Shown: piece after piece, positions 11,668 through 32,704 of the stretch
Numbering within the stretch: the first letter of the stretch is position 1
How the letters are laid out: each line of letters starts with the position of its first letter
Origin: Escherichia coli
Lineage (GTDB): Bacteria; Pseudomonadota; Gammaproteobacteria; Enterobacterales; Enterobacteriaceae
Length of the DNA: 64,000 nucleotides
Strand: one strand, 5' to 3'
NCBI RefSeq assembly: GCF_050320075.1
Contig: NZ_CP190019.1
Notes under the pieces: generated by a model
Databases searched by the model: none
What the model saw: the letters and a program-made list of their open reading frames with translations, nothing else
Told to the model about the DNA's origin: nothing
Program-made: the position numbers and the translations under genes

Positions 11668-11722
11668 GGTGATGCTGCCAACTTACTGATTTAGTGTATG
11701 ATGGTGTTTTTGAGGTGCTCCA

Positions 11723-11998
11723 GTGGCTTCTGTTTCTATCAGCTGTCCCTCCTGTTCAGCTACTGACGGAGTGGTGCGTAACGGCAAAAGCACCGCCGGA
11801 CATCAGCGCTATCTCTGCTCTCACTGCCGTAAAACATGGCAACTGCAGTTCACTTACACCGCTTCTCAACCCGGTACGCACCAGAAAATCATTGATATGG
11901 CCATGAATGGCGTTGGATGCCGGGTAACTGCCCGCATTATGGGCGTTGGCCTCAACACGATTTTACGTCACTTAAAAAACTCAGGCCGCAGTCGGTAA
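11723..11998 (+). CDS. insA: IS1 InsA
   Basis: 91-aa [43 protein letters not shown]…. Confidence 0.85.
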
Positions 11999-12420
11999 CC
12001 TCGCGCATACAGCCGGGCAGTGACGTCATCGTCTGCGCGGAAATGGACGAACAGTGGGGCTATGTCGGGGCTAAATCGCGCCAGCGCTGGCTGTTTTACG
12101 CGTATGACAGGCTCCGGAAGACGGTTGTTGCGCACGTATTCGGTGAACGCACTATGGCGACGCTGGGGCGTCTTATGAGCCTGCTGTCACCCTTTGACGT
12201 GGTGATATGGATGACGGATGGCTGGCCGCTGTATGAATCCCGCCTGAAGGGAAAGCTGCACGTAATCAGCAAGCGATATACGCAGCGAATTGAGCGGCAT
12301 AACCTGAATCTGAGGCAGCACCTGGCACGGCTGGGACGGAAGTCGCTGTCGTTTTCAAAATCGGTGGAGCTGCATGACAAAGTCATCGGGCATTATCTGA
12401 ACATAAAACACTATCAATAA
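11917..12420 (+). CDS. insB: IS1 InsB frame (expressed as an InsAB fusion by frameshifting)
   Basis: 167-aa ORF overlapping insA in the -1 frame. Confidence 0.8.
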
Positions 12421-12497
12421 GTTGGAGTCATTACCCAATAGCCGAAAGATAGCGCACACATCGCCGTTGGTCAGTTAGTACGAGGTTTCCGCCAAGT

Positions 12498-13887
12498 TCA
12501 CCTTTTACCAAAGATGGCCTCAGAGCTTCCCTGAAGCTTTATCATGGCTTCAAGTAGGTCATCTTCGTTCAGTGAGCGCTGAGATTTGTTGATGCTAGGG
12601 GCGTGCCGTCTGCGGGAAGGCTCATCACCAGAACAAGGTAACGATTGTGAGCGATTATTGTCCCGTTTTCTCTGGACCTGACGGGCAACATCCAACACAT
12701 GGCCAAGTCTCTTGTTATCTACAATGGCGACGGGATCAACCTCAGAAAGCCGGTCATAGGTGGAGTAGGGCAGCAGCACGCCATTTAGTCGCAGCTCCTT
12801 ATGTCCGTCAGGATAATGCCAGACATCAATATACTTGCCGATGGCTCTTCGACTGTACTCGTTGTCCTCAATCAGATAGAGCATTTTATCGTATTGTACA
12901 GTCAGATTTTTTGATACCCGGCGAGGCTCTCGCTAGGTAAATTCTGCATCAAGGTCATCGTCTAATGCCAGCGGCCGGTGCGCGTTAAAATCATGCAAGG
13001 GTTCTTTGGCAAAGCGCCGGTTATAATCCTTCTGCAAATGCATTGGCCGCTTCTATTGTACAGATCCCCTTAAGCCTGAGCTCCTTAACGAGTCGGTCCT
13101 GAAGTGTCAAATGAGCACGTTCAACGCGGCCTTTTGCCTGGCTGGTTTCAGCACACAAAGGAGTAATATTAAGGCAGCGCATGGCCCTGGCAAACTGGGT
13201 TTCGCCGGGGCCGGTGGTGGCGTGCTTATTATTGACTCTGAATACGCTGGCTTTATCGCTGTAGAGGATCATCGGTTTACCGTATTTCTCGATATAGCCA
13301 CGTGTAGCTTCAAAATAGGTAAATGTGGACTCAGATTTCACAAACAGCAGGTGCATCAGGCGACTGGTGGCATCGTCAACATAGACCAGGGCAGAACAGG
13401 GTCGACCCCGGTTTTCAAACCAGTGGTGGTCGCAGCCATCAATTTGTATCAGCTCGCCAGTACAAGGACGCCGGTAACGAGGCTGATGAATTTTCGGTGC
13501 GCGTTGTCTGCGGGGAATCCAGAGTCCGGCCTTTATCATGAGACGTCGGATGGTTTCCTTTCCAAGGACCAGACCGTGAACTTCCTCCAGCTTTTCCCGC
13601 GCTAGCGTGGGGCCAAAATCACGGTAGTGCTCCCGGATTATACTGAGTGCCTGATCTGTCAGTGACGCTGGCAACAGACGGTTACCAGTGCGGCCACGAC
13701 TCTGGTTGTTCATGCCAAGCGGCCCATACTGGCGATAACGTTTGAGCAGACGGCTGCAATGACGTGGCGTGATGCCCAGCATTTCGGCAGCCTGTCTAGG
13801 ACGGATATTGCGATCGATGACATCCTGAAGGATTTTGAGGCGATTGATTTCTTTCACGGTGAACATTCCGGCGTCATTTATAGCCAT
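12498..13887 (-). pseudogene. DDE transposase pseudogene (ISNCY/IS1202-like; family uncertain), frameshifted
   Basis: 288-aa ORF (13021..13887) with HTH N-terminus and integrase-core region, followed out of frame by a 128-aa ORF (12498..12884); together about the size of one transposase. Confidence 0.45.
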
Positions 13888-31757: not shown

Positions 31758-31991
31758 ACCTATTCCCTAATAAATGCCTAACTTAAAATGTTTGATCGTT
31801 AAGCTCACATCCTTGCCAGATATTTTTTACTGCCATTATTGTTTTTATATAAGAATGATAATTAATATCATTTAGCAAAAAAAAAGCAATCCCTCACAAG
31901 ATAAATATATTGATTTTTCATAAATATCAAATTGATGGTGATGCTGCCAACTTACTGATTTAGTGTATGATGGTGTTTTTGAGGTGCTCCA

Positions 31992-32267
31992 GTGGCTTCT
32001 GTTTCTATCAGCTGTCCCTCCTGTTCAGCTACTGACGGAGTGGTGCGTAACGGCAAAAGCACCGCCGGACATCAGCGCTATCTCTGCTCTCACTGCCGTA
32101 AAACATGGCAACTGCAGTTCACTTACACCGCTTCTCAACCCGGTACGCACCAGAAAATCATTGATATGGCCATGAATGGCGTTGGATGCCGGGCAACCGC
32201 CCGCATTATGGGCGTTGGCCTCAACACGATTTTCCGCCATTTAAAAAACTCAGGCCGCAGTCGGTAA
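31992..32267 (+). CDS. insA: IS1 InsA (copy 2)
   Basis: 91-aa ORF. Confidence 0.85.
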
Positions 32268-32689
32268 CCTCGCGCATACAGCCGGGCAGTGACGTCATCG
32301 TCTGCGCGGAAATGGACGAACAGTGGGGATACGTCGGGGCTAAATCGCGCCAGCGCTGGCTGTTTTACGCGTATGACAGGCTCCGGAAGACGGTTGTTGC
32401 GCACGTATTCGGTGAACGCACTATGGCGACGCTGGGGCGTCTTATGAGCCTGCTGTCACCCTTTGACGTGGTGATATGGATGACGGATGGCTGGCCGCTG
32501 TATGAATCCCGCCTGAAGGGAAAGCTGCACGTAATCAGCAAGCGATATACGCAGCGAATTGAGCGGCATAACCTGAATCTGAGGCAGCACCTGGCACGGC
32601 TGGGACGGAAGTCGCTGTCGTTTTCAAAATCGGTGGAGCTGCATGACAAAGTCATCGGGCATTATCTGAACATAAAACACTATCAATAA
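32186..32689 (+). CDS. insB: IS1 InsB frame (copy 2)
   Basis: 167-aa ORF. Confidence 0.8.
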
Positions 32690-32704
32690 GTTGGAGTCAT
32701 TACC

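Follow-up and report, generated by a model that had tools for sequence, protein, structure and literature searches.

Two IS1 copies bracketing the iss-iroBCDEN block of a ColBM-type Escherichia coli plasmid as probable scars of adjacent deletions

The stretch of DNA analysed here, which we call the window, comprises 64,000 nucleotides of an Escherichia coli contig (NZ_CP190019.1). Its genes and elements follow one another in the order RepFIB, mig-14, hlyF, ompT, remnants of IS3-family elements with a group II intron, IS1, a block carrying iss and the iro genes, a second IS1, a truncated cvaC (cvaC'), cvi, a truncated cba (cba'), cbi, cma and cmi. The conserved virulence region of ColV and ColBM plasmids consists of RepFIB, hlyF, ompT, ets, iss and iro, together with a colicin V or a colicin B/M operon. 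Among the markers of these plasmids, RepFIB, mig-14, a gene at the position of hlyF (annotated as an SDR oxidoreductase), ompT, iss, iroBCDEN, cvi, cbi, cma and cmi are present in the window; cvaC and cba are truncated, and etsABC, cvaA and cvaB are absent. Judged by this gene content, the window appears to belong to a ColBM-type IncFIB/FIC member of the ColV virulence-plasmid family whose constant region is incomplete. The iss-iro block itself is found in hundreds of ColV/ColBM plasmids.

Positions 10000–34000 of the window are 100% identical to pYZLc1-3_160k (NZ_CP123241.1), at the same coordinates, and also to several other IncFIB/FIC plasmids. The match with pYZLc1-3_160k continues base for base from position 1 to position 46281, beyond which the two diverge in the resistance region. 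The features of the bracketed block and of its surroundings are collected in Table 1. The left outer breakpoint reads ...TATCGCCACAAT/IS1, and on the far right, beyond cvi, lie the genes for colicin B (truncated) and colicin M. The group II intron is missing from pL65-2 and from those sibling plasmids that match only from window position 10770 onwards; it is a later addition to this sub-lineage and stands outside the IS1 structure.

Table 1. Features of the two IS1 copies, the DNA between them and the adjoining sequence (window coordinates)
Feature	Position	Strand	Remarks
Group II intron inside an IS3-family element left of IS1 copy 1	8508–10769	+	ltrA at 9179–10687
Left outer flank: what remains of an IS3-family integrase-core gene truncated by IS1 copy 1	11398–11667	-	
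IS1 copy 1, IS1A-type (RefSeq name)	11668–12435	+	768 bp, intact; from sequence and inverted repeats
Bracketed block between the IS1 copies	12436–31936		19,501 bp; RefSeq annotation of identical record
ISNCY transposase pseudogene	12498–13887		RefSeq annotation
CobW-family GTPase	14524–15717		RefSeq annotation
IS2 (IS3-family element)	about 16929–18267		RefSeq annotation
iss	18803–19096		RefSeq annotation
Phage Rz/Rz1 remnants	19180–19392		RefSeq annotation
Integrase-core pseudogene	19907–20936		RefSeq annotation
iroB, iroC, iroD, iroE	22247–29535		RefSeq annotation
iroN	29580–31757	-	RefSeq annotation
IS1 copy 2, IS1B-type (RefSeq name)	31937–32704	+	768 bp, intact; from sequence
Right outer flank: cvaC without its 3' end (32706–32903) and intact cvi (32881–33117)	32705–33117	-	

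IS1 is a 768-bp element with imperfect terminal inverted repeats of about 23 bp. Its InsAB' transposase is produced by a -1 frameshift at an A6C motif that joins the insA and insB' frames, and a simple insertion of the element generates a target-site duplication of 8–9 bp. Both copies in the window have the full length, intact terminal inverted repeats (GGTGATGCTGCCAACTTACTGAT on the left, GGTAATGACTCCAACTTATTGAT on the right), a 91-aa InsA, the A6C motif at IS position 307 and an open InsAB' frame of 232 aa, and RefSeq annotates the programmed frameshift in the IS1 transposase. On this sequence evidence both copies look functional. They differ from each other at seven IS1 positions (258, 262, 298, 301, 304, 393 and 396), which corresponds to 99.1% identity, and their InsA proteins differ by two substitutions, V68A and L81F. 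The whole window contains no further IS1 sequence.

The target-site duplication is the one hallmark of a simple insertion that both copies lack. The 9-mers bordering copy 1 are CGCCACAAT on the left and CAATAGCCG on the right, and those bordering copy 2 are CAAATTGAT and AACCGGATG. No matching pair is formed around copy 1, around copy 2, between the inner ends or between the outer ends, the outer flanks of the complete IS1-block-IS1 unit being the unequal CGCCACAAT and AACCGGATG. A preliminary description of this DNA had reported two IS1 copies in direct orientation, bracketing some 19.5 kb with the CobW-like gene, IS2, iss and iroBCDEN; its coordinates proved exact, and the RefSeq annotation agrees with its gene content. 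It had also denied any matching 9-bp duplications, as we do for either copy and for the pair, and had regarded the non-identical copies as independent arrivals, a view borne out by their seven differences, their different isoforms and the occurrence of each alone in relatives (pL65-2, for example, has the right copy only). What it missed is the deletion-scar nature of both elements, the left one marking the loss of etsABC and the right one that of cvaA, cvaB and part of cvaC.

The left-hand loss is evident from pL65-2 (NZ_CP034739.1), which has only the right IS1 at these sites. In this plasmid the two flanks of the left site are 7,445 bp apart, and in the window IS1 copy 1 replaces the intervening DNA. 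Window positions 10770–11667 align up to position 16330 of the pL65-2 segment compared (L003), and positions 12436–34000 align from its position 23776 onwards, collinearly and with 99.96% identity. The missing 7,445 bp encode etsABC and a gene of the STM4504 family. A further plasmid, pLH13-b-A (NZ_CP100526.1), has kept ets and carries an IS1 at the identical right-hand junction, IS1/CAATAGCCG. Its left and right borders read CAATAGCCA and CAATAGCCG, respectively, a target duplication matching at 8 of 9 positions. On the simplest reading, pLH13-b-A would represent the progenitor form of the left IS1, a simple insertion that preceded an adjacent deletion starting at the element's left end. The left IS1 would have entered a site immediately upstream of the ISNCY pseudogene and duplicated CAATAGCC(G), and a deletion proceeding from its left end would then have removed etsABC.

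We followed this junction through the 72,556 plasmids of PLSDB, counting a record if a single place covered at least 80% of the query. The IS1/CAATAGCCG junction occurs in 136 records. Its left partner is the left flank of the window in 89 of them, giving the complete series of left flank, IS1 and inner left flank; it is the ets-containing progenitor in one and an inverted cva-side flank in six, so that about 40 records remain by subtraction (136 - 89 - 1 - 6). Neither of two uniform explanations accounts for the roughly 47 extra junctions, as only one record fits the ets-containing progenitor and only six fit an inversion. IS1/CAATAGCCG is the older and the more widespread junction. On the other side of the block, the series of inner right flank, IS1 and right flank occurs in 93 records. 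A variant of this right junction, found in pPSUO2, falls just below 80% coverage, and these junction counts are thus unusable for the number of plasmids with both IS1 copies; the two-copy arrangement is collinear over 23–24 kb in one BLAST piece in at least 25 plasmids.

For the right-hand loss the informative relative is pAPEC-1 (NC_011980.1). This plasmid carries the iss-iro block in the same context and orientation with neither IS1, has ets to the left of the block and cvaABC to the right, and has the native ets-side DNA where the window has its left IS1. The two flanks of IS1 copy 2 are separated there by 7,390 bp that the window lacks. This DNA holds genes for a DAHP synthase and a DUF6404 protein, cvaA, cvaB and the 3'-terminal 110 bp of cvaC. 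The right IS1 would sit on the junction left by this loss, with cvi and a dead cvaC brought next to the colicin B/M genes. A search in cvaC and at the iroN-side flank found no simple-insertion progenitor of the right copy, and its deletion may stem from one IS1 event or from two. The preliminary description had itself held that finding the block in the same context without flanking IS1 would make the copies incidental; pAPEC-1 is such a case, and the two IS1 are indeed incidental to the origin of the block.

Adjacent deletions are textbook IS1 behaviour, and both sites have the corresponding structure: one IS element at the breakpoint, no duplication, and relatives in which the IS-free site is contiguous (pL65-2 on the left, pAPEC-1 on the right). 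The absence of a target duplication at either copy follows from each having one new junction, created by deletion. We therefore regard it as probable that the iss-iroBCDEN block belongs to the ancestral backbone and has kept its original location, that the two separately arrived IS1 copies are deletion scars at its edges, and that the block has been lost from other plasmids by exchange between these direct repeats. Two IS1 elements would have arrived separately, each removing about 7.4 kb of adjacent DNA, and exchange between the 768-bp direct repeats would later have eliminated one IS1 along with the 19.5-kb block. The anatomy, the DNA missing at each junction, the left-side progenitor form and the deletion derivatives are documented directly, and from them we infer the order of events. 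Two types of right-hand IS1 occur with one common left junction, a combination that requires recombination between plasmids.

The preliminary description had suggested that the block might be removed between the two IS1 copies, and the plasmid record contains exactly this outcome. In 50 PLSDB plasmids, among them pSMS35_130, the window's two outer flanks are joined by exactly one IS1, with a span of 1,568 bp, and the block is gone. Humans, pigs, poultry, a cat and a dog are among their hosts, and further sources are water and the environmental strain SMS-3-5. A second series of rearrangements is seen around pPSUO2, whose left IS1 is identical to that of the window and whose right IS1 has both borders displaced, by 35 bp away from iroN on one side and by 42 bp deeper into cvaC on the other. 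This right junction, present in 12 records, therefore reflects an independent event. In pLH10-b-1-C the left outer flank is followed by one IS1 and a cvaC' shorter by 42 bp; this plasmid is the one-IS1 product matching the pPSUO2 sub-lineage. Taking the two series together, sequence comparison indicates that the block has been lost at least twice in nature.

Inversion of the block has also occurred. In CP099232.1 and five siblings (6 records) it lies inverted between two inverted IS1 copies, one of which has the junctions ...GTGCTGCCT/IS1/CAATAGCCG and the other .../IS1/GTGCTGCCT... The duplication GTGCTGCCT is thereby split between the two copies, which is the signature of exchange between IS1 elements and documents such exchange at this locus independently of the losses.

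The IS1 remaining in the one-IS1 plasmids holds some information on how the block was lost. A single IS1 sequence is shared by 47 of the 50 plasmids; it is wholly of the right-hand type and has 157T, a base that is also found in the right-hand IS1 of pL65-2. An exchange between window-like copies would therefore lie in the first 156 bp, and in the pPSUO2/pLH10-b-1-C sub-lineage it would have to precede position 103. Typing at the seven sites also gave two variants, BBBBBBA and BBBBBAA, neither of which is the pattern of a simple hybrid between a left A and a right B copy, and other IS1 copies in these plasmids are mosaic. Sequence must therefore have been exchanged in other ways as well, and the typing cannot prove the route of loss. 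As a means of locating the crossover, hybrid typing gave nothing beyond 'left of position 157', because the IS1 variants are mosaics.

We favour homologous recombination over a transposase reaction for this final step. The strongest competing account, which we consider unlikely, is that the one-IS1 plasmids arose through a transposase-mediated adjacent deletion by the right IS1, or through an end-directed reaction that removed the left IS1 and the block. In its favour, the surviving IS1 is wholly of right-hand type in both independent products; moreover, IS1 makes adjacent deletions, two of them at this very locus, and nearby targets upstream of iroN have been used repeatedly by IS1. However, an unrelated deletion would have needed to end, twice, at the exact nucleotide already bordering the left IS1. 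A crossover within the first 100–150 bp is also not so improbable as to eliminate recombination (the two events together come to about 0.03, an estimate that assumes uniform exchange), and the mosaic nature of the IS1 variants makes the parental types uncertain.

A more specific idea, to which we assign only a slight probability, is that IS1 may perform an end-directed, conservative reaction between two copies, precisely removing one copy and the intervening DNA. The targeted mode of IS26 provides the comparison. This lead arises because both losses keep the right-hand IS1, so that the exchange would lie either in the first 103–156 bp or at the very end of the element. IS1 arrays resembling IS26 products have been reported, and a mechanistic study of them has been called for (PMC10100714).

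The suggestion that the arrangement could behave as a composite transposon, also made in the preliminary description, did not hold up. Two IS1 copies that look functional and have intact outer ends bracket passenger DNA, and IS1-bounded compound transposons do exist (PMC4707298, PMC10100714). Nevertheless, it is very improbable that iss and iro entered this plasmid, or travel between replicons, on a composite IS1 transposon made up of the whole 21-kb unit, whether comparable to Tn9 or to the aerobactin segment. The unit as a whole has no flanking target duplication, both of its outer junctions are deletion junctions in ancestral context, and the IS1-free block of pAPEC-1 has the same location and orientation, a location that it also occupies without IS1 in many other plasmids. 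The inner right junction is present in 96 PLSDB records, against 93 with a known outer flank, so at most 3 records could hold a transposed unit. The unit was not encountered at more than one unrelated site, the left partners assigned (96 of the 136 records) including no new target site, and a circle or tandem junction, in which the inner right flank, IS1 and the inner left flank follow one another, was found in 0 of the 72,556 PLSDB plasmids. On the ancestral context and the lack of a duplication we reject a composite-transposon origin of the block. With both IS1 copies looking intact, the unit may nevertheless retain the capacity to transpose.

Hardly credible, finally, is the view that the IS1 copies are inert passengers without consequence for the block: although the block is older than both copies and at least 25 public plasmids retain the two-IS1 arrangement unchanged, the DNA between the copies has been lost exactly in 50 records, the block has been inverted between them in 6, and ets and cvaAB have been lost at IS1 junctions.

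The genes hlyF, ompT, ets, iss, iro and cva serve as surveillance markers for ColV/ColBM plasmids. Under the deletion-scar reading, this locus illustrates how IS1 strips such markers, ets and cvaAB going first and the whole iss-iro block afterwards. The outcome is a widespread lineage (50 complete PLSDB plasmids) in which backbone and colicin M genes are retained and the salmochelin and serum-survival genes are gone. This helps explain ColV/ColBM plasmids without ets, iss or iro and is of modest practical use in plasmid typing, where the exact junction sequences can be employed as PCR or read-mapping markers for each stage.

We regard these changes as ordinary IS-driven plasmid remodelling, involving no new kind of element. 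The literature searched, leaving aside the paper on pAPEC-O1-ColBM (Johnson et al. 2006), contained no published description of this IS1-bounded iss-iro arrangement or of its derivatives. The two scars share with a classical IS1 adjacent deletion the single IS1 at the breakpoint, the absence of a duplication, and the combination of one conserved and one new junction; a progenitor with the duplication exists for the left copy, whereas none was found for the right copy at the sites searched.

Comparison with the reference ColBM plasmid, pAPEC-O1-ColBM (NC_009837.1), reveals the same iroBCDEN block, the same cbi-cma-cmi module and likewise a degraded ColV operon. In contrast to the window, where an IS1 lies at the junction and cvaC' and cvi survive, pAPEC-O1-ColBM has no IS1 beside iroN, and the interval from iroN to its ColBM genes still contains a DAHP synthase gene, an exonuclease gene, yacAB and cvaA. 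These differences in content indicate that the ColV operon was destroyed differently in each.

The plasmid pSMS35_130 (NC_010488.1) is identical to the window in its backbone on both sides, and its left outer and cvaC'-cvi flanks are the same to the nucleotide. It differs in having one IS1 where the window has IS1-block-IS1, and it is without iss, iro and ets; in the whole plasmid no part of the 19.5-kb block is present except an IS2-like element. We interpret it as a probable deletion derivative of the window's arrangement. The literature already describes it as atypical among ColV/ColBM plasmids, its constant region being incomplete (PMC4707298).

Among compound structures made by IS1, a 4.3-kb transposon with a 9-bp duplication has been described, along with IS1-linked amplification (PMC10100714). 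The resemblance of the window to the aerobactin (iuc/iut) segment of the pColV-K30 type is closer, for in both a siderophore locus of the ColV virulence family lies between two IS1 copies. IS1-bounded virulence segments on ColV plasmids are classical. Movement of the IS1-bounded aerobactin segment of pColV-K30 has been shown experimentally, according to work cited in PMC4707298, and sequenced aerobactin segments are often without flanking target duplications (PMC4707298). The two systems differ in that the IS1 copies of the aerobactin segment are described as inverted (PMC4707298), whereas those of the window are direct and both deletion scars; and while transposition has been shown for the aerobactin segment, the documented rearrangements of the iss-iro block are loss and inversion only.

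The window and pPSUO2, a plasmid of a second sub-lineage that carries the same left IS1, have both lost nearly the same stretch, about 7.4 kb of the DNA separating iroN from cvaC, and the two deletions differ in their endpoints by only 35 and 42 bp. These losses are two independent IS1-associated deletions. The iroN promoter region and cvi are retained in both. Selection for iroN and ColV immunity while shedding cvaABC, combined with an IS1 target preference, may lie behind the parallel deletions.

The AT-rich stretch upstream of iroN, comprising a segment of the window and its native continuation in another plasmid record (L007), is a repeated IS1 target. 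IS1 is found there at the site seen in the window, at a site 35 bp beyond it in 12 records and, in other plasmids, at sites roughly 80, 200 and 540 bp beyond it, as estimated from the spans of joined matches. CP099232.1, in which the block is inverted between two inverted IS1 copies, has an IS1 site with a duplication of GTGCTGCCT in the same stretch, by estimate about 200 bp on; it and the roughly 200-bp position just listed may be one site. CP099232.1 also has an IS1 directly beside the sequence that immediately follows the integrase-neighbour gene of RepFIB, and in this lineage the interval from RepFIB to the block, where mig-14, hlyF, ompT and ets usually lie, lacks them; IS1-associated remodelling therefore reaches further left in some plasmids.

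At the other end of the block, the IS1|CAATAGCCG junction (window 12436) is present in 136 PLSDB records, and in about 40 of these IS1 is joined on its left to something other than the window's flank, the ets progenitor or the inverted cva flank. Such records may be nested deletions, or may have arisen by exchange with other IS1 copies. The IS1 remaining after both independent block losses is wholly of the right-hand type in the deletion derivatives (L004, L005, L015 and L016), where a single IS1 joins the two outer flanks. In rare variants of the deletion-derivative IS1, left-type bases are confined to the far right, at positions 393 and 396, the reverse of the pattern expected from a simple crossover.

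Coordinates of features in the window and related plasmids
Feature	Record	Coordinates	Remark
Group II intron	window	8508-10769	inside an IS3-family element, to the left of the first IS1 copy
ltrA	window	9179-10687	within the intron
146-bp direct repeat	window	14196-14341; 17095-17240	90% identity
AT-rich stretch	window	31758-31936	upstream of iroN
Native continuation of AT-rich stretch	L007	12006-12600	
Right IS1	window	31937-32704	
Right IS1	pPSUO2 (L014)	32905-33672	
RepFIB-side IS1	CP099232.1 (L010)	2421-3188	
3.8-kb gene	window	38790-42611	annotated anti-phage transmembrane ATPase
Segment beyond ColBM module	window	42831-45530	DUF6404 gene, hypothetical gene, 3'-5' exonuclease gene, yacB
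820-bp repeat, four copies	window	47615-48435; 49957-50777; 55981-56805; 61436-62258	

Within the block, one copy of the 146-bp repeat lies in IS2 and the other beside the CobW-like gene, in a 'hypothetical protein' pseudogene; the latter is probably an old IS2-like remnant. Left of the block, the group II intron is missing, by sequence comparison, from pL65-2, a relative with ets and the right IS1 only, and likewise from many sibling plasmids whose sequence otherwise agrees with the window from 10770 on; the intron is therefore a recent gain in the window's sub-lineage.

Identity of the window with NZ_CP123241.1 ends at 46281, and the resistance region differs past that point (46282-64000); the source of the window is therefore a sibling plasmid or a different version of that record. 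The 820-bp repeat of this region is probably IS26, because IS26 is annotated in the resistance region of the sibling record. The segment at 42831-45530, placed past the ColBM module and the 3.8-kb gene, shares only 98.6% identity with its counterpart beside iroN in CP099232.1 and pAPEC-O1-ColBM, against 99.7-100% for the other regions in common; it looks like a second allele that arrived with the ColBM module.
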